Part shown: positions 1,058 to 35,804 of the stretch, piece after piece | Numbering within the stretch: position 1 is the first letter of the stretch | Layout of the letters: the number at the start of each line of letters is the position of its first letter | Source: Hormiphora californensis | Taxonomy: Eukaryota; Animalia; Ctenophora | Direction: 5' to 3' | Assembly: GCA_020137815.1 (NCBI GenBank) | Contig: CM035358.1 | Span: 1,240,001-1,304,000 of the forward strand | DNA length: 64,000 bases | Made by a program: the position numbers and the translations under genes | Notes under the pieces: model-generated | What the model was told of the DNA's origin: nothing | Databases searched by the model: none | Seen by the model: only the letters and a program-made list of their open reading frames with translations

Positions 1058-1212
1058 CCTAAAGAATTATATTATATCTCAAAATTTTACAATGGTAAGA
1101 TAACACTTAAAAAAGAAAAAACTTAACGGATACCTTCCTGCTTTCAAAAGCGGTTTTACTCTACTTGATCAATAAATTAGAGTCCATGAGCTAGTAGTGT
1201 TTATACAAATGT

Positions 1213-2445
1213 TCAAGTGTCCCTTGGTGCTTCTAACACCCTCTTTCCACGGATTATGAAGTGGGTTCCAGGGGACTGCTTTACCTTCTCCTTCAGTTCA
1301 ACAACAAGCTTCTTCCGTTCTTTCCGTTCTTCTACTGTTCTATCAGGAGAGATAAAGACTTTGACAAACTTGTCGTTCCCTTTCAGCAGGGATTTCTTCG
1401 ACAGGATTGACATTTGAGCGTCTTTGCTCCTCAGCACAACTTTCACAGGTCTTGCCGATGAGGACTGCTTTCCCAAGCGCTCGGCAGATTGCACTTTCGG
1501 AGCCTCTTCAAGCTCACTAAAAAGAGACTTAATTTGAGTTTCAAGCTTCTCACCATTTACATTTTCTTTCAACTCTTCCAATCCATGGATGATGATATTA
1601 CACCCACGGTCGTCCGATGCTGCCACAATTGCCGATTGAATCTTCTTAGGAGCCAGGGCCGAAGCACACTCCTTCTCCAAAATGGATGCGAAGCTCTTCA
1701 TTTCTTCCTGTGCCGTTGACTGCACAGCTGTTATCTCAACCTCCCTCTTCTCAAGTAATTGCCTCTGGATTTTCAGGAGCTCCTCTTGTGCAGCCACTAG
1801 ATTTCTTTGGGTTTTTATGAGCTCTGTACTATGGATTTTGAGCTCTTTCTCCAGCTGGTTTATCCTCAAGGTTTCGCAACCCACTGCTAACAACTCTTCA
1901 GTAACTGGGAAGGTCTGTTCCATAAGAATACGGCATGCATCCTCCACAAGGTCTAAAAGCACTGGCTTGGTCAGTGCATTGAGTTTGGTCCTGGAGGGAA
2001 CCTTCAGATCATTCCAAACTTCCGCTGTCTGTGGTCTGTACCGTATCCGTTTCAAAGTGGACCTGAGAGCTTTTTGCTCCTTCAGTTCAGAGGGCGTTAG
2101 ATCCGGAGATAGATAAACAGCCGAAAACTGTTTGGAGTCTTTGAGGTTTCGTGCTTTTTTGAGAAGCGCCAGGAGAGTCGCTCTCCTCTCCAGGGATACT
2201 AAGAGCGGTCTAGGACGTTTCTCATTTCTTTCCCCGATGCGTTTTATCGTTGTCACTTTCGGTTTCTCTTGCAGCTCCTCAAAAAGTTCGTCTAAAGTAG
2301 TTTTAGCTACTCTATCGGTTGTTTCTTGGAGACCAAACACAATCAGGTTCTTCTCTCTTCCGGGCTGTTGGACGGGAGTAGGGTGGTGCGACGTTAGTGG
2401 TTTTACCACTTTAGGGGAGGTTGCAGCACAATTCTGTGCAAGCAC
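1213..2445 (-). mobile_element. LINE ORF1-like coding fragment(s), two ORF1 RRM/CTD-like modules in one frame
   Basis: Two copies of the non-LTR ORF1 signature (NLIVFGLQE..RIG..RPLLV..YLSPDLT; NIIIHGLEE..RLG..RPVKV..FISPDRT) with a coiled coil between; no ORF2 follows. Confidence 0.75.
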
Positions 2446-3082
2446 AGAAGAGTAAAAAGTTCTGTAACTATGAAACCATGAGGAGATTTGGATGTAATAC
2501 TGAAAATTGCAACCTATTTCATCCTCCCCTCTGTAAGAACTCAGAGTTACGTCACCAGTGCTTTAAACAAAACTGCATGAAGCAACATCTAAAAGATACT
2601 CAGCGGAGCCCGCCTTTTAGAGTTGATGAAGCACCCCGGAACACTGGTTTAAATGCTCGGAATGGGATCGGCTCCAACATCTTGGTATCTTGTCCCTCCA
2701 GCGGCGTCGTGAGCGATACATGATTATCCATGTCTGGAAGGTTCTTCATGAGGTAGTTCCAAACGGCACGGGTCTCCTGTTTACTGAGCACACCCGTCTT
2801 GGTACCAGAGCATTGGTCCCCCGTTACAATTACCTCGCTCAAAAATCCATATCTGGCCCTTATGACTCATCATTCGGTGTTAGAGGAGCACAGTTGTGGA
2901 ATTCCCTACCCCGTGCAGTGAGAGAGGCAACATCACTGCTCGAGTTGAAACAGTCCCTTGGGTCCTACTTAACTACCATCCCCGACCAGCCACCTGTACG
3001 CGGTTACCGGGTTGAGCACAGTAACTCCTTGATTGATTGGAGAAATGACCCCAGTGTGTTTAAAGAGATGGGCGAATCATAG
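2440..3082 (+). mobile_element. Internally deleted CR1/L2-group LINE remnant (ORF1 CCCH finger joined to ORF2 C-terminus)
   Basis: FHPPLCKNSE..C..HLKDT matches ORF1 of the 4662 element; WDRLQHLGILSLQRRRERY..LWNSLPR matches the end of its ORF2. Confidence 0.8.
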
Positions 3083-3755
3083 AAATGTGTTTTGCTTTTC
3101 ATTGTCAATTGGCTGATACATATAACCTGCTGACTTTCCATGTCATCTGAGTGTTGGCTCCTTTTGAGCTAAAGCTTTGTGTACAATACTAAATTTATTT
3201 ACGAATGTTTACGAATGTTTAAATACGCGAAGTAGCCTTAATAATTTCATTCGCAGTTAAGTCCTTGAGGCAGTGACTGAAATACGAACCCCAGTGATTG
3301 CAAGGGGAAGCTACACTGTCGTTGGTTAACATTGAGTCGGGTGCAGCTTGGATCGATTTATAACATTGAATAAACTGATCCGATGTGATACTCGTCGTGT
3401 TGAGATCGTCAGCAGAGTTCAACCAGTAAACTTCAGAAACAAAGTCGTTTACTGTCTCTTCCAATCGTTTTATCGCAGGGTTATCGCCCTCGTACTTCAT
3501 TTCTGACATTATCAACGTTTCGTTTTTCTGCCCTTTGGGGCTGTTACATCGGATTCATCTTCCTGCTCAATAAATAGTTTTACGTTGTAGTTGATGAAAG
3601 TTTGTAACAGCTAATAGCGTATTCAGAACTAAACAAACAGCGAAGTATATTGTCTCTTAATACGATTCGTAACATATCCAGCGTGGGACATGAAATGACT
3701 TTTATGTAAAGAAACAGGGAAAGGAGATAAAAAGAACGCCAGTGGCAGCGTTTTT

Positions 3756-3909: not shown

Positions 3910-4554
3910 AGTCGGATTTTTTGAAACTGTCACCCCCTGAAATAACAAAATTTGCCATATCTCCGGTTCTTGATAAGATAGAGACTTGAAATTTGGAGGT
4001 TCGGAAGAACTTAGCAAGATCTTCGTAACCTCCAAATTTCAAGTCTCTATCTCGCCAGGAACTGGTTTTATGGTCATTTACGAAATTTGAAAATACCCAG
4101 GGGGGTGACAGTTTCAAAAAATCTTGGAATGCGCTGCAGCCCCCTCATGCGCGCACCCCCGCAACAAGGGGACTGGAGGGAATGCCGCGCGCGCGTTTGG
4201 CCTGAGCCCGGCTGGGTCGAAAATAACTTTGCGGTCGAAAAAACGGCGGTGCTTATAACTTTGGCCCCTGAAGTCCGTTTTGCTTGATTCTTTCACTAGC
4301 TGTTAGATCTGACAATTATCTACCTTGCTGTTTTTGAGAGAAGTTAATTGGACTTGAGGAGGCTGAGCAATAGCCGTTCAAAGATTGGTTGTTTTCAAAA
4401 AGTGACGTCACAGGTCCCTGCAGGGACACTTTGTTTCAAATTTGAATTAAAATCTCGAAATTTTTTATTTTACCGCACTCGATTTTGCGGAGTTTGGTTC
4501 ATATCTCCTGTTCCTGATAAGATAGAGACCTGAAACCGGTTGCATTTGAAAGCT
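3910..4554. repeat. Hairpin-rich foldback repeat, left part, interrupted by the LINE
   Basis: Hairpin gagacttgaaatttggaggtt..aacctccaaatttcaagtctc and motif ttttaccgcactcgattttgc both recur at 9284-9490. Confidence 0.65.
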
Positions 4555-4574
4555 GTTTCAAACTGTTTCAAGCT

Positions 4575-4616
4575 GTTTCAAACTTTTCAACACTACTTTA
4601 AACAAATTAATTTGAG
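4575..4616 (+). other. Spliced-leader (SL) exon relic at the LINE 5' end
   Basis: gtttcaaacttttcaacactactttaaacaaattaatttgag matches the ctenophore (Pleurobrachia) SL as I recall it; followed by gc, not the gt of an SL RNA gene. Confidence 0.8.
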
Positions 4617-4661
4617 GCGCGCGCCCGTGCGTTTTCGAATATCCCTCTGTAGGCTCTAGCC

Positions 4662-6068
4662 ATGCCAGATATGACAAATATGGCTACACCTACTGATGAC
4701 AAAAGTGATGGCAATGCCCTTGCCGTTGGAAATCTTGTAAACGCAGCAGATCCTCTTACCAAAAAGATCCTGTCTGCCTACCGCCATGATGTGGATTACA
4801 CCAAGAATCTAGACATCATCCGCACATTCAACTGTGCTCACCTGGAAGCCGCTGCATCATTTTTCGGTGCATCCCCCGGCTCACATGCAGATAAAACTAA
4901 GCGGTACCAGAACCGCACTACACTAGCTGACTACATCATCATTCAGCTGGAAAGTCATTTTCCTTGTGACTGTGAGGGCTGTGGCGAAGGGTATGCAGTT
5001 AAACCAGGTGAATCTCCTCGTGTCCGCTGTTTTCTTTGCCAGCAGGGGTCTCATGATTGCGAGGCTATGGATGGCACCCTTGGGTCATTGACGGGGTCGG
5101 TCTGGTTGTGTCTGCCGTGCAAGGACAAAAACAACAAAATTGAAACCTTCATGTGCAACCGAAGTGCTGAAGATCCAGAATCAGTGTTATCTGATGAGGA
5201 ATACGAGTTCAAAATCAGTCCAAAGGCAGGCCGTAGCGGTAAGAAGAAGAGGAAGAAGAAACAAGCTCCTGTCAAGAAAGATCCTGATGATCTGGTAACT
5301 CCTGTTGGTGGAGTGACAGTTCTAAAAGATGTGGATCTTGGAGACATATCTTCTGATGGAGAGGTGAAACCCCAAGGTGTTCCTAAATTCAGCAATGTTT
5401 GTGAACGTTATCTACTGAGAGACTGTCCCCATGGCCCAAATGGTGACAAGTTGATTAGTGGTAAGCCTTGCAGCAAGGAACATCCCCAGAGATGCCTCCG
5501 TTATTGTCAGTTCGGAACGGCAACTCGTTCTGGGTGTAACTATGGTGACCAGTGCCAGGATTTTCACCCACCTCTCTGCCATAAGTCTGAGATCTCCCGA
5601 GTCTGTACCGACAAAGAATGTAAAGACACACATTTAAAGAACACTCGGAGAAGTGAAGTAGCCCCTACCAAGGGTAATTCATTGAAGACTGCTGGTAACA
5701 AAACCAGTGGTGTCTCTCAGAAAGTGGAGCAGAAAGAGACCCCTCGCTCAGCTCCTCCAAACCCAAAGAAGAAGAAGAAGAAGAAGATTAACAAAACTGA
5801 GACCGATCCCCGTGCCGCGACCAATGACATCCGTTCACAAGAGGATTTTCTCATGGCATTGATGGCCTCAGTGAGGGACGAGATTCTTCGAGAAGTAAAG
5901 ACGTCACTGAACTCATCTCTACAGTCCTTCAGGGAAGAGATGACGAGGGAACACACACCCCGGCCCAAACATCTGACACTCACACAACCAGGCCTGAACA
6001 CCCCGACCAACTACCAAGGGGTTCTGGAACGGTTTCGGAATTACTCCTCATCAACGCCCGCAGTTTAA
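4662..6068 (+). CDS. LINE ORF1 (PHD-like finger, CCCH fingers, basic tracts)
   Basis: CDCEGC..RCFLCQQGSHDC..WLCLPC; CERYLLRDCPHG; CLRYCQFG..C..FHPPLC; poly-Lys tracts. Confidence 0.9.
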   Translation: MPDMTNMATPTDDKSDGNALAVGNLVNAADPLTKKILSAYRHDVDYTKNLDIIRTFNCAHLEAAASFFGASPGSHADKTKRYQNRTTLADYIIIQLESHFPCDCEGCGEGYAVKPGESPRVRCFLCQQGSHDCEAMDGTLGSLTGSVWLCLPCKDKNNKIETFMCNRSAEDPESVLSDEEYEFKISPKAGRSGKKKRKKKQAPVKKDPDDLVTPVGGVTVLKDVDLGDISSDGEVKPQGVPKFSNVCERYLLRDCPHGPNGDKLISGKPCSKEHPQRCLRYCQFGTATRSGCNYGDQCQDFHPPLCHKSEISRVCTDKECKDTHLKNTRRSEVAPTKGNSLKTAGNKTSGVSQKVEQKETPRSAPPNPKKKKKKKINKTETDPRAATNDIRSQEDFLMALMASVRDEILREVKTSLNSSLQSFREEMTREHTPRPKHLTLTQPGLNTPTNYQGVLERFRNYSSSTPAV

Positions 6069-8971
6069 CGCCTTCCGCGGCTAGTGACTGTCGGTGGAAG
6101 TTTTCTTTTATCAAGGACTCACTGGAGAATCCGTCAATACCCATCCTTTGCACCGGTATTACGGAGACCTGGTGGCATGATGATTTCTCTGATGCCCAAT
6201 TGGAGATTGAAGGCTTTCACCTAACTCGTTGTGACAGAGCGGGTAGAAGAGGTGGCGGTTGTGCACTCTACATTAACAATCAACTGACCCCTTCCTCTGA
6301 GTTCAGATTCTCAGACACGTCCAATAGTGCGGCTGCTGTATACATCAAGGAGACCCACTCGGTTTTCTGTGTTGTGTACAGGGCGCCATCTTCCCCTGCG
6401 AATGATCTTTTTGATGATCTATCCCGTTTCATTGATCAGTGCGAACTCGACAAGGGTTGTCCTGACATCTATGTCATGGGCGACTTCAATATGCCAGACA
6501 TAGACTGGGGGACACTCACTGGAGGACCTAGCTCACAGATGCTACTAAAATTTGTGAACTCATATTTTCTCACTCAGCTTGTTGACTCTCCAACACGGGG
6601 CTTGAATATTCTAGACCTCGTTCTCACCAACCGGCCAGACTATGTCTTCAAAACTGAGGTATCGGAGTCGTGTATTTCTGACCATAATATGATCAGCTCT
6701 ACACTTGGGTTTGGTATCTTACCCACTCGTCAATCAGACCATCGATTCACGGACTTTGATATTTACAACTTTCACGAGGCTAACTTCCCTGAAATGTGTA
6801 GGGAGCTGGACCAGATCGACTGGCTAGCACTCGCCGACATCTGCGATGACGGTGATGGTTCTGATTTCGTTCAACTTTTCACCCTGACTGTTCTACAGGT
6901 CTTATCTCACCACTCTCGTAAGAAGAAGGCCCGTAAAAAAAGAAGGGACCCTATTCTCAGGAAATTGAAAGTGAAACAGCGGAGTTTGAATAAACGGATT
7001 ACTCTTGCCCGGCAGAATAAACCTCACCTTTTGCCACAGCTAGAGGTTGGTGTTTCCAGAATTACTTGGGCCATCTTGTGTCACATTTCTCAGCGACTTG
7101 ATTCTGATGAAAACGAGGCGTTGATAAAACTCAAAGCTAACCCAAAATTCTTCTGGTCATACGCCAACCGAAAGAGGAAGACCCGGTCACGTATACCTCC
7201 TTTACAGAAAAGTGATGGGTCACTTACGGACGTTCCCGAGATGAAGGCAGAACTATTTCAATCACAATTTACCTCTGTTTTCAGCACTCCTTCAAACTCC
7301 CCTTCAGCAGCTGCAGACAACATTACTCCTTCTACATGCAGCCTTTCAGACATCGTTTTCTCCACTGCTGATATTGAAAAGGCACTACATGACCTCAATC
7401 CCTATTCAGCCGGCCCTCCAGGAGATGTACCTGCCAGAATTTTACGTGACTGCCGATCATCGCTGTCCTACCCCCTATCCATCTTATGGGCCAAATCGTT
7501 TGATTCTGGTATTGTACCACCCTGTCTGAAACTTCAGTACATTGCACCCCTCTACAAAAAGGGTCCTAAAATGAAAGCTGAAAATTACCGCCCGATCTCC
7601 CTCACCAGCCACATTGCCAAGACATTTGAACGGGTTGTAAGATCTCAAATGGTGTCATACTTTGAATCAGAGAACTTGTTTAACGAGTCTCAGCATGGAT
7701 TTAGAAGCAAGAGGAGCTGCTTATCCCAACTCACTCGTCACATTGACAATATTCTGAACAATCTCAACAACCTTCTTGAAGTGGATGTAATATACTTAGA
7801 CTTCGAGAAGGCTTTTGATAAAGTTGACATCGGTATACTTCTCGAAAAGCTGCAGAGATATGGAGTTAAGGGCAAACTCCTTGAATGGATCCGCAGCTTC
7901 CTACTAGACCGGAAACAAACGGTCTTAGTCGACGGCGTAGCGTCTTCTTTTGCAGAAGTCAGAAGTGGGGTCCCACAAGGGACTGTTCTCGGTCCACTTT
8001 TATTTCTGATTTATGTAATTGACCTGGAATCCGTAATCAAACACGGTTCTTCTTTGTCGTTCGCTGATGACACTAAAATCTTCTCTGCTATCCGTACTAT
8101 GGTTGACAAATTGAACCTACAGGAGGATCTGAACAGTGTGATAACCTGGGCTGACGCTAACAATATGTCCTTGCACCAGTCAAAGTTCGAGGTCATGAAT
8201 TTCACCCTGAATCACACCAGTTCGCTTAGAGAAGTACCGTTCAGTGCTGAGAACTATTCCTATCAACTGTCTGATGGGAGGTTCATCGATCCAACAGACA
8301 CTGTCCGAGACTTAGGTGTTCTACTCTCGAGTGATGGTCAATGGTCGGCCCAAATATCTCGAGTTGTTACCACGGCTAGTCGGGTTGCTGGATGGACATT
8401 AAGTGCATTTAGATCCAGAACTCGCCGCACCATGATGACTCTTTACAAGTCACTGGTGCGTCCCCATCTTGACTACTGTTGCACACTGTGGTCACCTTCC
8501 AAAAATGGGGATATCAGTCGTGTTGAGGATATTCAACGATCGTACACCCGTAAGATCGTTGGTCTCAAGGGGCTGAACTACTGGCAACGTCTTCAAACCC
8601 TGGGACTTTTGTCGCTTCAGCGCCGACGAGAGAGGTACACTATGATTCTTGTGTGGAAAGTGTACAACAATGAGATACCCAACAGTACTGACATGTGTTT
8701 CGTCGACAGTCACCGCTCTGGCCCTAGAGCTGTCGTCCCTCGATACTCGTACGAGGCTCAACGATCTATCTTGTCGCTATATGAACAATCATTTGCGGTA
8801 CTGGGGGCAAGGTTGTGGAACACTTTGCCTCGATCTGTAAAGGAGGCCCCAACTCTTTATCAGTTCAAATCTCAGCTAGGTAGTTTCCTCTCTACCATTC
8901 CGGATACACCCCCCATCAGCGGTTATCCTGCTCAAGCAAACAGCAACTCAATACTAGAGTGGTGTCCATGA
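5828..8971 (+). CDS. LINE ORF2: AP endonuclease + reverse transcriptase (frame open from 5828, no AUG before the EN domain)
   Basis: LLINARSL, ITETW, GDFN, LDLVLTN, SDH (APE); YRPISL, QHGF, LDFEKAFD, GVPQG, FADD, DLGV (RT). Confidence 0.95.
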   Translation, partial: HPFTRGFSHGIDGLSEGRDSSRSKDVTELISTVLQGRDDEGTHTPAQTSDTHTTRPEHPDQLPRGSGTVSELLLINARSLTPSAASDCRWKFSFIKDSLENPSIPILCTGITETWWHDDFSDAQLEIEGFHLTRCDRAGRRGGGCALYINNQLTPSSEFRFSDTSNSAAAVYIKETHSVFCVVYRAPSSPANDLFDDLSRFIDQCELDKGCPDIYVMGDFNMPDIDWGTLTGGPSSQMLLKFVNSYFLTQLVDSPTRGLNILDLVLTNRPDYVFKTEVSESCISDHNMISSTLGFGILPTRQSDHRFTDFDIYNFHEANFPEMCRELDQIDWLALADICDDGDGSDFVQLFTLTVLQVLSHHSRKKKARKKRRDPILRKLKVKQRSLNKRITLARQNKPHLLPQLEVGVSRITWAILCHISQRLDSDENEALIKLKANPKFFWSYANRKRKTRSRIPPLQKSDGSLTDVPEMKAELFQSQFTSVFSTPSNSPSAAADNITPSTCSLSDIVFSTADIEKALHDLNPYSAGPPGDVPARILRDCRSSLSYPLSILWAKSFDSGIVPPCLKLQYIAPLYKKGPKMKAENYRPISLTSHIAKTFERVVRSQMVSYFESENLFNESQHGFRSKRSCLSQLTRHIDNILNNLNNLLEVDVIYLDFEKAFDKVDIGILLEKLQRYGVKGKLLEWIRSFLLDRKQTVLVDGVASSFAEVRSGVPQGTVLGPLLFLIYVIDLESVIKHGSSLSFADDTKIFSAIRTMVDKLNLQEDLNSVITWADANNMSLHQSKFEVMNFTLNHTSSLREVPFSAENYSYQLSDGRFIDPTDTVRDLGVLLSSDGQWSAQISRVVTTASRVAGWTLSAFRSRTRRTMMTLYKSLVRPHLDYCCTLWSPSKNGDISRVEDIQRSYTRKIVGLKGLNYWQRLQTLGLLSLQRRRERYTMILVWKVYNNEIPNSTDMCFVDSHRSGPRAVVPRYSYEAQRSILSLYEQSFAVLGARLWNTLPRSVKEAPTLYQFKSQLGSFLSTIPDTPPISGYPAQANSNSILEWCP

Positions 8972-9099
8972 TGCGTGTTAGTGTGTTATGTGTCGCTGTG
9001 CTGTGAGTGTACTGAGCATTGACTCTTTTTAGGAGGTTTATCTTTTTAAATATCCTGTGTGTTACGCAAATTTATGAATTTGAATTTGAATTTGAATTT

Positions 9100-9660
9100 A
9101 TCTTCCTCTTTCCAACGCTACCAAAACGATTTCTGTACCTTATCTGGAACCGGAGATATGATTGATTATGTATTCCCCCCCAGCGCGGTATTCCCTCCAG
9201 GCCCCTTATATTATATTATAAGGGGCCTGCAACGTATGCCAACAAAAAATCCGACTTTATAGTCTGATTTTAAATAACTGTCGTTTTTACCGCACTCGAT
9301 TTTGCTCTATTATTACAATAACTCCGGTTCCTGATGAGATAAAGACTTGAAACTTAGGGGTTGCGAAGAACATGCTAAGTTCTTCCTAACCTCCAAATTT
9401 CAAGTCTCTATCTTATCAGGAACTGGAGATATTGTCATAATAGAGCAAAATCGAGTGCGGTAAAAACGACAGTTATTTAAAATCAGACTATACTTTTCAA
9501 CAGTTTTGAGATTTCTAAAATTTAAATTTTCGCGCACCGGATTTTTTGGCATTCCATCAAGCGGCGCGCGAACTCACGCGCAAAGTTAAAATTCGCGCCA
9601 CGCGACTGCGCGTGTTGGTTTTTGGTGCCAGACAACTCGGTCAGTATAAAGTCCGTTTCA
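9100..9660. repeat. Foldback repeat, right part
   Basis: Palindrome tagtctgattttaaataactgtcgtttttaccgc .. gcggtaaaaacgacagttatttaaaatcagacta (9260-9490); shares motifs with 3910-4554. Confidence 0.7.
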
Positions 9661-11683: not shown

Positions 11684-13010
11684 CTTCTTCTTCTTCTGGG
11701 AGGACGCTGGCTAGTGCGAAGCACTAGCCAGTATGGGGTGGGTGCCATGTGGCTCCCGTTCCCCGTCCTGGGTGAAGTGGTTGGTGTGTTGCCAGCTGCT
11801 TCGGCCCAATGGGAATTGGGGAGCTGGTGCCATACCAGGTCACAGGGGAAACCTCCCTTTAAGGGGTGGTTTCTGGGGGGTGAAGTATATCCATCGCCTT
11901 CTTATAGAACGATATCGTTTTTCTAAGGGGTTGATGGTGTCTAATTTCGTACATGCTGAGGCCCAGCCTGTCAAAGGATTCCTGTCGGAGTTTCCAGAGG
12001 GCGGGGCATTCAGTGAGTACATGCTTTATTGTCTCGTCTTCCATCCCACATGCTGCACAGGTTGTGGTCTCGACTTTCTTTAGTTTTTTCAAGTGATAGT
12101 TCAGGTGGCAGTGCCCTGTGAGTAGGTGAGTCGCCATCCTTAGGTCTGATCTATTAAGTTTTTGAAGAGGTCTCTCATATCTTTCGGTCCACATCATGTT
12201 CATATGTTTGGTATGTTTGATGGGTCCGGTTTTAACCTTTTCCCTGAGGGCTGCATAGGCTGCCGCTTTGGGAATTGGTATGAGAGTAACTTCTTCGATT
12301 TCTTGAGCTCCTTTTTTTGCCAGGATGTCTGCTATCTCGTTTCCATCGTACCCTTGGTGGGCCGGGATCCATCTAATCATGACATCGTTGAATATGGCTA
12401 GGGTGTTCAGGTTTTTGATAGTTTTTATCGCGGTTCTTGATCTGCATGTCGTGGAGTCTAGGGTCTTAATTGTCCCTTGGCTGTCACAGTTTATGAGTAT
12501 TCGCTCGTTTGCCGTCCCTTTGTCTAGGAGGCTTTGAGCTGTTTTCTGTATAGCAAACATTTCTGCCGCCGGTACTGTGCCTTCGGGGCCTAGGTTGTAT
12601 GATTTTCTATCTAGTTCTGTTTCACCGGAGTGGATGATGTATCCTGCTCCTGCGTTGTTGTTGATTTTTGACCCATCAGTGTGTGCAACTATCGTGTAAT
12701 TATCTCCTTCCTCCTCGAACGTCCCCCTTTCCGGGATCTCTAGTGAGAATTCCCTGTCTAGGGTGAGTTCCGGGGTTGTGAGGTCGTGACCTCTGCCCTC
12801 TGTTTCCAGAGTTCTGAGGTCCCGAGATACCGTGTTGGCATGTGAGGTAAACACTTTTGGGGTTTTTAGGTTTGATTTTATTGGCCCTTCCCATTCTCCC
12901 GTTGCCATTAGGGTGTATGCAGTTTTGGCTGCACAGTACCTCAGGTGGTCGGTGATTGGAGTGGTGTTTGTGATTGTGTCGAGGGCTGTTGATGGTGTCG
13001 AGGGCATGGC
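11684..13010 (-). mobile_element. 5'-truncated RNase H-bearing LINE (I/Loa/R1-group) 3' end
   Basis: ORF 11859-13007: HTDGSK, AEMFAI, CDSQ, WIPAH..GNEIAD (RNase H) and CAAC..ETIKHVLTECP zinc knuckle; (aga)n tail at 11684-11696. Confidence 0.85.
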
Positions 13011-14767: not shown

Positions 14768-15382
14768 GAACACGTCCCAGAGGTCCACACACACTTCAAA
14801 GCCCAAGGATTTCACCCCACTACCTATGCCAGCCAGTGGTTCCTAACCATGTTCGCTACTGTGCTGCCACTCAACGCCGTCTTTCGTATCATGGACATCT
14901 TTCTTTGGGAGGTAAGATATTGGAGAGCGAGTTGGGAGGGCGTGAGTTGGGAGGTTTGCTTGTTTGTTTGTTAAAGACGTCTTAGGAACAGCTGGGATAC
15001 TGGGCTAAGAGGTATGATATTGGAGAAAATGAGTGAAAGGTGTCACGTCAATGTTTACTGTACACAGCCACAAGTTTTGCTAACAATGACAACCCCGTCA
15101 CTGTTGACATTGTAGAGACAAACAGACAGTGGAACTATAATTATACAGAGGGTCTTCTACATCTATAATATATCTTCTACACCTATAGACTGAATGAGGG
15201 GGACTTGGGAACAGGGAATATCTATAACTATAGTAATTACATTATTCTAATAACAGACAGCCCAATGCAGAAAGATTGCTTGTCTTTATATGTGATGCTT
15301 GCAGTGTCTCAATCTTGTGAGAATATAATGTGAGATCTTGTCAATAAATTCTGCATACACACATGCTGAAATATACACACTA

Positions 15383-15414
<32 letters not shown>

Positions 15415-17730
15415 TATCTCTCTCTATCTCTATCATTTATATCATCGTCTCTAGTATAGTATTTATCTCTCATAGCCGGTGTTTAGTTACAGGTGTTTCA
15501 CCCGAGATAGCGGCGACTCTTCTTTGAGTAGGAGGGGAGCGATATGTAGTGAGAGAGGGAGAGAAGGAGAGAGATAAAGATAGAGAAGGAGAGAGATAAA
15601 GATAGAGAGATAGCCGGAAGGAAGTGTTGATATGACGACTGTCATCATCTGATCTTCTTTATTTTCAGCAAACATTTGACGTTATCTACCAAATTGGCAT
15701 TGCTCTCCTGAAGGAAGGGAAGGATATTCTAATCAATAATGACATTGAAGGAATGCTACAGGTAACACCATTCTCCGTATTGCACTGGGTGTGTCGGCGT
15801 GTATTGCATTCATTGTACAATAAAAGTGTGAATGTGTGAGTGTATTTTTTGAAAAAAGTCCAGTCCAACTCTCTCCCATCGACACACTATGTATGCGGCA
15901 CGCGCGACGACTTGGTTGCGGTGAAAGCGCGTTCTCGTGCACGAATTCTGCGCGGCGCAGGACCGTGGGAAATCTCCCACCAAATCTTGCAGCAGCGATC
16001 TTTCAGTTTCACCAAGTGCAAGCATCATCTTTCAGCTTCTTTGAAATGAATACAGGTTTGTAATATTACGCCCTTTTTTAGTACTTCAGAACGACTGTGT
16101 ACAAGAATTGGGTTGGAGCAGAGGACGGGTTAATTAAAATTGCCAGGCAAATCAAATTGGACCAACGAAAAGTAAGCAACAGTGATTATTTAATTATCCC
16201 TTACCAGAACCCCGCCTCGCACATAAATACTGTCGTGTTTCCTAATTCCTAACAATGCTCATATCTCTTCCTCAGCTACGAAGATTAAAACAGGTGTATG
16301 TGACTGAGAAGGAAAGGGAATCAGCAGAATTAGAGGAGTGTAAGAGACTCTCTTTTGAGAACAGTGTTCTGTGTCAAAGGATTAGAACTTTGGAGGGAGA
16401 AACTTGTCATTTGGCTGACAAATTAATCAAGGTAAGAGAAAGTATCTGGGTATAAATGGGTAACTAAAACCTTATCAAAATGATACTTAAGCAATGGCCT
16501 CCCCTTATTCGTCTCGGTGTTTTTGTGCCATAACAATAACATAACCATCTCTCCACAGGGCCAAGTGAGTCGGGCAGAACAAGCAGAAGAACTGTTCATT
16601 TTAAAACGAGAACTGATCGCACTACGTCGACATGACGGCGAGGTGTCAGAGAAACTAAATGAGGCCACGAGGAGAAATAGTTATCTAGACTCCAAGCTGC
16701 ATGGAATATGCTCAGAAAATGAGGCCCTCCGTCAGGCGCTATCTACGCTAGGTCACGATCCTCTACAGTTCATTCAGAATAGCGAGATCCCAAGTTGTGT
16801 TTATAGCAGCTCAGCGGTGACTCTTCCTACATCAACAGGACCCGAGGTAATGTATACTTGTGACTTGTAGAATGTAGGAAATACTGGTCCCTGATTGGCT
16901 GATAACCAGTCACGTGACCTAAATGACGAGTTCTGATCGGTTGATTACTTGTTTCGGTCGGTTCCTGTAATTTACTAATTTCCACTATTCCAGGAGAGAT
17001 GTGAGGATGCGGGTTATTGTACAATAGAAAGACAGCAGTCAGCACAGTGTAGTCCCGGGGCCATGGAACTTCTCTCTGAATCAACTAGATCCTCCCCCAA
17101 GGTAGGCAGACACTAACACGTGAGTAATCCTTTGTGGGCGTGTGAATGTCGTGTGAATGAAACTGAGAGTGAATGGGATTGATATTGAGTGTGAATGATT
17201 CAATGAATCGCCCATATGATTCGATTGGAATTATGCGTAGATTTTGTAGTAATGAACCCAGTGTAGGGTGATGCAATATAGGTACCTCTTGAATTGTACC
17301 CCCACAACTGCTTTCCAACTCCATGCACATTATTCCAGGATGCAGTTGAGCAACATTGTCGGTCTATATCGAGTGACAGTGTGATAAGTAGTTCAAGTAG
17401 TAGTACTGCAACTACAGGGTTTGAAGCACAACCAACAGCACATAGCAGTAGTTACTATAAACACCACGTTCAGGTTGGTGCTCTCAGTTCTGGTCGAATG
17501 AGTTTTAGTTTTAGAAGTGAATGGATTTTCATCCCAATTTCATCGAATTTGTTGACTTTTTTACTCCTATACGCAACTTTAAACATGTTTGTTTCGCTTT
17601 TCAGGTCGATTCAAAGTTAGTCATATCACAAACTGGAAGCACAGTTGTTGCGAACGGGCCTAATAAGATTACGGATGGACTAAAAAAGACGTTTGGGCTT
17701 GATAAAAAAGAGAGGGATAGGTTATTGTGA
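14768..17730 (+). CDS. EVI5: EVI5-like TBC-domain RabGAP, 3' exons (~14768-14911, 15669-15761, 16082-16170, 16276-16431, 16559-16846, 17339-17473, 17605-17730); 5' exons not seen
   Basis: YASQWFLTMF..VFRIMDIFL (TBC C-half), LADKLIK|GQVSRAEQAEE (EVI5 coiled coil), GT-AG boundaries. Confidence 0.85.
16876..16967. mobile_element. hAT-like ~110-bp MITE, partial copy
   Basis: Same family as 45819, 51642 and 54452. Confidence 0.8.
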
Positions 17731-34298: not shown

Positions 34299-35804
34299 TT
34301 ATCTTGCCAGATTTCTAAGAGCCTCAACTAGAGTCCTTGTCGGTCTCCCACTCATACCTTTGGGCAGATAACTACACGACTGTGTGCTATCCATGACTCC
34401 CGCAATATCAAGATGCGCCCAACTATCACACTTCACAAACCGCTCCAAAAACTTGGCCGCAGTGATTGAACCGCCATACGGAGTGCTACTGATATTATTG
34501 ACATCAGCAGTCGGGGACTTGAGGAGATCTCCATATTCCGCAAAAAGGGGCATCCTCCATAATCTATCACCTGATACCCTTCCTCCACTTTCAAGTGCAC
34601 TCCACAAGTCCTCACAGGTACTATATGTCCCGGAACATTCACCACCCAGGGCCACGGCCATGGCTCCCGTCAGAGTGGCGGCATCAATAACATGCCGGGG
34701 TTGGAATGTGTCAGAATAACAGAGAGCATCAGCCAATATCAACCTACCCTCGGCATCCGTGTTGTCGACCTGGATAGTAGTACCATCCATAGCAGTCACC
34801 ACATCACCTGGCTTAGTGGCCCGTGCAGATGGCATGTTCTCACACAGGACAATGAGGGAGACGATGTTAATGGGAAGGGACAGAGCAGCCGCAGCTAGTG
34901 TGGCACTGGTCATACACGCTGCCCCACCCATGTCTGCCCTCATAGCGTCCATTCCTTTAGAGGGCTTGATAGAAATACCACCGGTGTCAAAAGTTACCCC
35001 TTTACCAACCATACATACAGGAGCCTCGCCCTCCGCTGCACCTGAGTAGTGGAGTTCTAGTAGGAAGGGTGGTTCGTCGGACCCTTTTGCTACTGACATA
35101 AATGATCCCATTTTCTTTTCCTCTATCCAGTCCCTCTCCCTAACAACAAGCTTTACACGACCATCCGGGAAATCCTCTGCCACTATCTTTTGGATGGTCT
35201 CAACAAATAACCGCGGAGTCATGTGGTTAGCGGGCATCTCCATGAGATATCGGGATAGGTTTTGGTACTTTGCCAAAATTACACCCTCCCTCCAGGCTGA
35301 CTCACATGCTTCAGGTAGGTCAACTGACTTGCACTGGGTAACCTCCGGTGATGGCGTTTTCTTGGACTTTAATGCGTCAAATTTAAAGAGAGATAGCATG
35401 GTCGCTTCGCCTGATGCTTTGGCATTCCCGGCGGAATCTACAACGATTTCTGTTACCGAAGGATCAGATTTCAGGGATGTGACCGCATGTCCAATTGCTG
35501 TTCGAATAGCTTCTGCGTCTGCGTCTCGAGATACAGAATCATAACTTTTCAGCTTTGTAGACTTCTCAATATTAGCCACAGCTATTGCTGGATACTTGGA
35601 ACTGACACCGTAAAATGTCCTACATTTCTTGATAGTGGATATTTTAATCTTCTCAGACAGTTGAGATGCGACCTCGCTATCAAGAGAACTTGCACAGGAG
35701 GACAGCTTGAATTCCTCCCCATCGTAAGACCCAGTTACCACTAGTCCAGTTAAACTCCGATAATGGGAGGGTCGTGAGAGAGCCCTCCGGGTGAAATTGA
35801 GCAT
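34299..35804 (-). CDS. LAP3: M17 leucine aminopeptidase, intronless, probable mitochondrial presequence
   Basis: VGKGVTFDTGG, MRADMGGAA, NTDAEGRL, ATLTGA, HLDIAG; starts MLNFTRRALSR. Confidence 0.95.
   Translation of the reverse strand: MLNFTRRALSRPSHYRSLTGLVVTGSYDGEEFKLSSCASSLDSEVASQLSEKIKISTIKKCRTFYGVSSKYPAIAVANIEKSTKLKSYDSVSRDADAEAIRTAIGHAVTSLKSDPSVTEIVVDSAGNAKASGEATMLSLFKFDALKSKKTPSPEVTQCKSVDLPEACESAWREGVILAKYQNLSRYLMEMPANHMTPRLFVETIQKIVAEDFPDGRVKLVVRERDWIEEKKMGSFMSVAKGSDEPPFLLELHYSGAAEGEAPVCMVGKGVTFDTGGISIKPSKGMDAMRADMGGAACMTSATLAAAALSLPINIVSLIVLCENMPSARATKPGDVVTAMDGTTIQVDNTDAEGRLILADALCYSDTFQPRHVIDAATLTGAMAVALGGECSGTYSTCEDLWSALESGGRVSGDRLWRMPLFAEYGDLLKSPTADVNNISSTPYGGSITAAKFLERFVKCDSWAHLDIAGVMDSTQSCSYLPKGMSGRPTRTLVEALRNLAR

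Follow-up and report, generated by a model that had tools for sequence, protein, structure and literature searches.

A host spliced leader at the genomic 5′ end of a LINE of the ctenophore Hormiphora californensis and of further elements

For a non-LTR element, a functional 5′ end has to be regenerated from RNA, and the known solutions are internal promoters, or co-transcription with a host unit followed by ribozyme release. What, then, serves as the 5′ end of a LINE that begins in genomic DNA with a host spliced leader (SL)? The question is raised by a 64,000-nucleotide stretch of Hormiphora californensis DNA (assembly GCA_020137815.1, contig CM035358.1, positions 1,240,001 to 1,304,000 of the forward strand), referred to here as the window. 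An initial annotation, made from the letters of the window, proposed that the RNA of this LINE had been trans-spliced to the leader, reverse transcribed to its end, and inserted. The computational follow-up described here concerns the following parts of the locus, all on the + strand:

4499–4557 (+): left half of a multicopy palindromic repeat, the target of the LINE (self-matches in the window, empty-site contigs)
4553–4582 (+): target/SL junction unit in three copies, two stutters and the real junction (sequence reading)
4575–4616 (+): SL-A, spliced leader exon, 42 nt, 3′ end TTTGAG (published leader, match to the SL RNA gene L022)
4617–4661 (+): 5′UTR, 45 nt; two acceptor-like YAG, their last letters at 4652 and 4659 (sequence reading)
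4662–6068 (+): ORF1, 468 aa, Cys/His-rich (open reading frame)
5828–8971 (+): ORF2 frame with AP endonuclease and reverse transcriptase (RT); frame −1 relative to ORF1, with which it overlaps (Pfam)
9075–9099 (+): 3′ tail of hexamer repeats (sequence reading)
9100–9161 (+): right half of the target repeat (self-matches, empty-site contigs)

With ORF1, an ORF2 that encodes both AP endonuclease and RT, and a 3′ repeat tail, the window element is an AP-endonuclease LINE. The ORF2 frame is uninterrupted, and its endonuclease and RT domains both exceed the Pfam cut-offs. A processed, SL-tagged retrogene, that is, a passive copy of a host gene, was considered for this locus and set aside, as the element encodes an open RT/endonuclease frame. 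ORF1 has no Pfam match and a single weak atlas lead below the recognition threshold; it is 31% identical to the ORF1 of L020, one of the SL-headed elements described below. The first ATG of ORF2 lies at 6476, in the middle of the endonuclease, and 5828–6475 contains none. Lacking an early ATG and overlapping ORF1 in the −1 frame, ORF2 would need a frameshift or a non-ATG start for its translation.

The LINE is inserted between the two halves of its target with a duplication of at most about 2 nt. Contigs of the empty site, four in run X5 and also found in run X1, join 4557 straight to 9100, so that the leader and the stutters belong to the insertion and not to the flank. This excludes the concern that the 42-mer might be part of the flanking repeat. 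The two stutters of the 5′ end that had been claimed are indeed present, the junction unit CTGTTTCAA standing at 4553, 4563 and 4573. The trinucleotide GTT is common to the target and the 5′ end of the SL, and the stutters likely stem from repeated microhomology jumps during 5′ joining.

SL-A is identical, at 42 of 42 nucleotides, to nt 3–44 of the published Hormiphora californensis leader, which PMC8527503 gives as 44 nt long, present on 56% of Hormiphora Iso-Seq reads and found in 718 copies in the Hormiphora genome (491 in Mnemiopsis). This exact identity bears out the suggestion that the 42-mer is the ctenophore SL. The 3′ 24 nt of SL-A occur once in the window and in none of 100 shuffles, even when three mismatches are allowed. 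SL-A is carried by 485 contigs of run X22, which is labelled as RNA and guessed to be such. Directly 3′ of SL-A there is a GC and no GT donor, in line with the earlier statement that this is not an SL RNA gene, and the fold of SL-A with the UTR is unremarkable (z −1.1). The reported spacing of 45 nt between the 42-mer and ORF1 is also right, the ATG being at 4662. An acceptor-like site before the ATG exists as described, but its position, 4657, was wrong, since the AGs end at 4652 and 4659. Among the contigs listed for three DNA runs and one RNA-labelled run, none has the SL joined to 4653 or 4660. No RNA run is listed as containing the LINE, and X22 leaves the LINE body uncovered from 4632 to 4980; neither result is informative on expression.

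Is the window LINE a single case? Metagenome contigs were scanned with a 29-nt stretch of the leader, over which the pattern forces identity, and gave 35 matches in 34 loci; pattern scans of viral contigs and of genome contigs for the SL gave 0 matches. The 34 loci comprise 23 that resemble mRNAs, one tandem SL RNA gene and ten elements, whose contigs were taken to be DNA from their flanks of 1–461 nt. At the mRNA-like loci the leader sits at the contig end with an ATG 1–64 nt downstream; 20 of these loci have above-cut-off Pfam matches to ordinary genes, one has a weak match and two have none, and an RT is found in 0 of 23. SL-A thus heads many unrelated mRNAs (23 of 34 loci), as a ctenophore spliced leader does. 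The remaining loci are:

L022, 693–830 and 1471–1608: tandem SL RNA gene, two units (GTAAG donor, fold)
L007, L008, L015, L034: elements with RT
L020, L003: elements with an endonuclease domain, that of L003 below the cut-off
L021: element by ORF1 homology, 31–37% identical to the preceding group
L016, L032: ORF1-like frames that belong to large ctenophore clusters in the atlas
L031: tenth element, unassigned

The two units of L022 are 94.6% identical and about 780 nt apart; they fold (z −3.9) into three stem-loops with the donor inside the first stem. Against this SL RNA gene the window SL-A matches over exactly 42 nt, and the ten elements match over 35–43 nt, reaching 0–2 nt into the intron and including none of the upstream flank. 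The copies at the element heads lack 0–8 nt of the SL 5′ end. All 11 SL-A junctions, in the window and in the ten elements, lie at the last base of the exon and bring along neither SL intron nor foreign mRNA sequence. Protein evidence identifies seven of the ten elements as LINEs. Other full-length elements therefore start with the SL as the window LINE does, and the SL-headed LINE is confirmed not to be a one-off, which the initial annotation had named as the outcome that would speak against it. A low-coverage assembly favours multicopy sequence, so the 10:1 proportion of elements to SL genes is not a genome-wide ratio.

Of the element UTRs, 10 of 12 contain acceptor-like YAG sites, as do 2 of 23 mRNA UTRs; the median UTR lengths, 100 and 6 nt, differ too much for the comparison to count as a test. 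In L016, L020 and L032 an acceptor-like TTTYAG hexamer follows directly behind the leader, and in L031 the leader is joined at the point where a hexamer of that type would end.

The SL-headed elements span two separate RT lineages. In quick trees, the RT of the window LINE clusters with stork, lizard and turtle proteins, which we take to be CR1 elements, with SH-aLRT support of 95 in a tree of 56 of 59 rows (three left out) and of 87 in a tree of 21 chosen rows. The RTs of L007, L008, L015 and L034 fall outside this group. Forcing them together with the window RT is rejected in the 21-row quick tree (p-AU 0.004), for a group that was defined after the first RT tree had been seen. The window LINE is a candidate member of the CR1 clade, and the four others are presumably L2/Crack/Daphne-like. 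In the second group, of six related families whose ORF1 proteins are 31–61% identical, what appears to be the equivalent point carries the SL junction in each, and the identity of their 5′UTRs ranges from 0.80 down to the level of shuffled sequence.

The depth of DNA contigs gives a view of further copies of the window family. At position 4642 the depth in run X1 is 662.6, the sum of two contigs (421.6 and 241) that both run into SL sequence. The deeper one matches 4599–4677 with zero differences; the other matches 4606–4677 and continues upstream with 41 other letters. On their SL side, the two contigs extend for 18 and 11 letters, respectively, short of the 31 that the bridging rule demands. 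A nearby locus-specific contig of X1 has a depth of 84.3, so that the ratios are roughly 5 and 3, and 9 at the start of ORF1, although depth is not to be equated with copy number. In run X5, the letters before 4606 hold an AG and a leader shortened by an internal deletion, behind other sequence, and the upstream letters of the X1 depth-241 variant are assumed to be the same. X1 contains no SL-free upstream form covering 4642. Another X5 contig, at a depth of 48.6, has 11 other letters in place of most of the 5′UTR between the leader and 4668; it is a relative with a shorter UTR.

A second leader-headed element lies upstream of the LINE on the opposite strand:

3566–3608 (−): SL-B, second SL-like leader, 43 nt, 3′ end TTGAG, at the head of W2 (SL-like search)
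1134–3565 (−): W2, multicopy composite that combines ORF1-like frames with part of a related LINE in antisense (depth, homology to L016)

SL-B is the second-best leader-like match in the window and is reached in 0 of 10000 shuffles. Its region has very high depth in the DNA runs, and four contigs of X22 cover 3562–3608 and nothing else, two of them at depths of 320 and 440. These data suggest that SL-B is a second working leader class, one for which the leader section of PMC8527503 holds no description. The W2 body is likely non-autonomous; its contigs in X1 reach depths of 353–876, against 84 for the locus-specific contig, and its ORF is 67% identical to that of L016. Among the contigs listed, at least one in X1 and at least one in X3, two runs of one study, fit W2 up to 3570 and then continue in register with letters of SL-A (12 and 21, respectively). 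To judge from these contigs, the W2 body bears SL-A or SL-B at one and the same junction, as expected if splicing adds the leader to the RNA. W2 also shares a 5′UTR motif with a small GC hairpin (3520–3550, −) with L016, L031 and L032, three otherwise diverged leader-headed elements; the motif could be part of a promoter or an RNA signal.

Both elements likely lie within a host gene, of which the window contains the following part:

14770–17730 (+): 3′ exons of an EVI5-like gene, from about residue 221 to the end (Pfam RabGAP-TBC, named ctenophore homologs, tblastn)

The nearest named relatives of this gene are from Mnemiopsis and Bolinopsis. Its residues 1–220 have no convincing match within the window, so the LINE likely lies in one long intron, with the exons that precede it likely upstream of the window. 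The initial annotation had placed the LINE sense to the EVI5-like gene and in its intron: the sense orientation holds, the exons being on the + strand, and the intron is likely. As a general argument, sense orientation fails, since W2, also headed by a leader and in the same intron, is antisense. A fragment of an RNase H-bearing LINE (11859–13007, −) is likewise antisense in this intron and has no leader-like match nearby.

The exact, exon-only SL and the SL-free empty site support the proposal that the LINE RNA was trans-spliced before it was reverse transcribed and inserted. We consider the retrotransposition of SL-spliced RNA to be a habit of the family, with a probability of about 0.9. The LINE RNA would acquire the SL by trans-splicing, and its reverse transcription would then stop just a few bases short of the cap. 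How the SL-headed copy could be expressed in turn is a separate matter. Host read-through may supply a transcript that spans the genomic SL-headed LINE, and the genomic SL copy could then act as its own acceptor, its terminal AG being reused so that a fresh capped leader is added at the same junction in each round. A second, translated mRNA may arise from the YAG that lies downstream, close to the ORF1 ATG. Use of an internal acceptor in each cycle would erode the 5′UTR, so a lasting cycle requires the terminal AG of the SL itself. Likewise, an SL-headed copy must remake the same RNA if the lineage is to persist, which favours reuse of this AG. The initial annotation did not propose such reuse.

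Taken together, read-through transcription, reuse of the terminal AG and the lack of an own promoter strike us as somewhat more likely than not. The promoterless, regenerating cycle is plausible, and one line of evidence, the leader swap, supports it in its own right. Several observations count against it. The SL ends in GAG and would be a weak acceptor, since either CAG or TAG closes all seven EVI5-like acceptors read from the exon map. A cis donor within the intron should outcompete the SL, to judge from PMC4558846, which argues against re-splicing. The antisense W2 speaks against the read-through model, and the X1 depth-241 variant could do so too, as a promoter-bearing master copy.

That last idea leads to an alternative in which each family has a few masters with an outron or promoter, and the SL-headed copies are their processed daughters, mostly dead ends in the manner of SL-tagged retrogenes. 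Such masters would account just as well for the exact SL and for the leader swap. The 41 extra upstream letters of the X1 depth-241 variant suit them, as do the AG and the shortened SL before 4606 in X5, and Hydra offers a parallel, with TE transcripts described as trans-spliced like those of ordinary genes (PMC12220107). We nonetheless hold it to be unlikely, if far from negligible: X1 lacks an SL-free upstream form over 4642, the multicopy contigs with open frames are the SL-headed ones, and the junction has stayed constant across families while the 5′UTRs diverged to shuffle level. The genomic SL might instead be an internal promoter, with transcription starting at its first base and no further trans-splicing. 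A nematode SL exon does act as a promoter element, which would favour this reading, and a promoter would suit copies that are antisense or intergenic, W2 being an example; for dinoflagellate retrogenes it has been suggested (PMC5585692). An inherited promoter gives no reason to expect two leader types at a single junction and sits poorly with copies that lack 0–8 nt of the SL 5′ end, and we rate it as distinctly improbable.

Two further alternatives would place the SL beside the element without any splicing of the LINE RNA. The RT could have switched templates at the end of the cDNA, the new template being SL RNA or else an mRNA capped with the SL; U6/L1 chimeras are a precedent, SL RNA is abundant (X22), and the 5′ stutters suggest template jumps. 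We judge it very improbable, since a switch would hardly place 11 of 11 SL-A junctions at the last exon base with no SL intron and no foreign mRNA, or keep the LINE-side point fixed in a multicopy contig. The LINE could also target SL RNA genes in the manner of NeSL, SLACS and CRE, so that the SL would be target DNA; site-specific non-LTR elements are known to insert into SL exons (PMC4640811). The empty site contradicts this directly, being a palindromic repeat without an SL. The upstream flank of the SL gene is present in 0 of 11 elements, the 3′ end of the window element is adjoined by the repeat and not by SL intron, and the endonuclease at the N-terminus of ORF2 is of the AP type and not restriction-like. 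Such targeting is barely credible here.

These elements resemble known systems and depart from them in several respects. The window LINE resembles CR1-group elements in its two ORFs, its AP endonuclease and RT, its short tandem-repeat tail and its little or no target duplication, but its 5′ end consists of a host SL exon and a 45-nt UTR, where a longer, element-specific promoter region is expected for that group. NeSL, SLACS, CZAR and CRE share with it an SL exon adjoining a non-LTR element. They insert into SL genes by means of a restriction-like endonuclease, whereas the window LINE and the other SL-headed elements have unrelated insertion sites and the SL would travel with the RNA. R2 is co-transcribed with rRNA and released by a ribozyme; if the proposed cycle holds, both systems would lack a promoter and have their 5′ end cut from a host transcript, the ctenophore elements differing in not being site-specific, in release by the spliceosome and in the addition of a cap. 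There is a likeness, too, to dinoflagellate retrogenes, in which genomic SL relicts mark the reverse transcription of trans-spliced RNA, and for which PMC5585692 discusses both a promoter and a re-acceptor role. Those retrogenes are described there as passive copies of host genes with partial, stacked relicts; the ctenophore case involves an animal, and an autonomous element whose single, near-complete SL is joined at a fixed point. In Hydra, an SL is present on about 30% of the TE Iso-Seq reads (PMC12220107), and six genomic SL exons are merged to TEs in Schistosoma mansoni, where the authors allow for mis-assembly (PMC5832876); in the passages concerned, neither source presents the SL as the regular 5′ terminus of LINE families in the genome. 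A search by titles and the beginnings of abstracts, with subscription papers and Repbase or Dfam notes outside its scope, found no report of leader-headed ctenophore LINEs, nor do the relevant parts of PMC7986045, PMC12460157 and PMC11822377 contain anything on them.

If the proposed cycle is true, a renewable host leader would be a third solution to the 5′-end problem, one used by an animal's elements from two RT lineages. The 718 leaders of Hormiphora and 491 of Mnemiopsis were given no class in the leader section of PMC8527503, and SL-headed LINEs would supply a concrete candidate for both sets and may account for many of the former. The 42-nt SL tag marks full-length LINE copies. A wider view, which we offer tentatively and at slightly less than even odds, is that in ctenophores two or more LINE lineages, together with their non-autonomous derivatives, are promoterless and use the SL as a self-regenerating acceptor, so that every transcript reading through a copy would furnish a capped RNA of full length for transposition; most genomic leaders would then be LINE heads, and these portable trans-splice sites would help to explain the many sense-nested genes.

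Two minor observations remain. One of the mRNA-like loci, L010, is a leader-capped, polyA-ended contig that encodes ubiquitin-S27a (32–490) followed by ribosomal protein L13e (637–1296). It is either a dicistronic RNA or a chimera; the pertinent section of PMC7986045 treats operons as unreported in ctenophores. Within the window, 34299–35804 (−) has no leader-like match among the best eight and contains an unbroken ORF of 501 aa. Its product presumably resembles leucine aminopeptidase.
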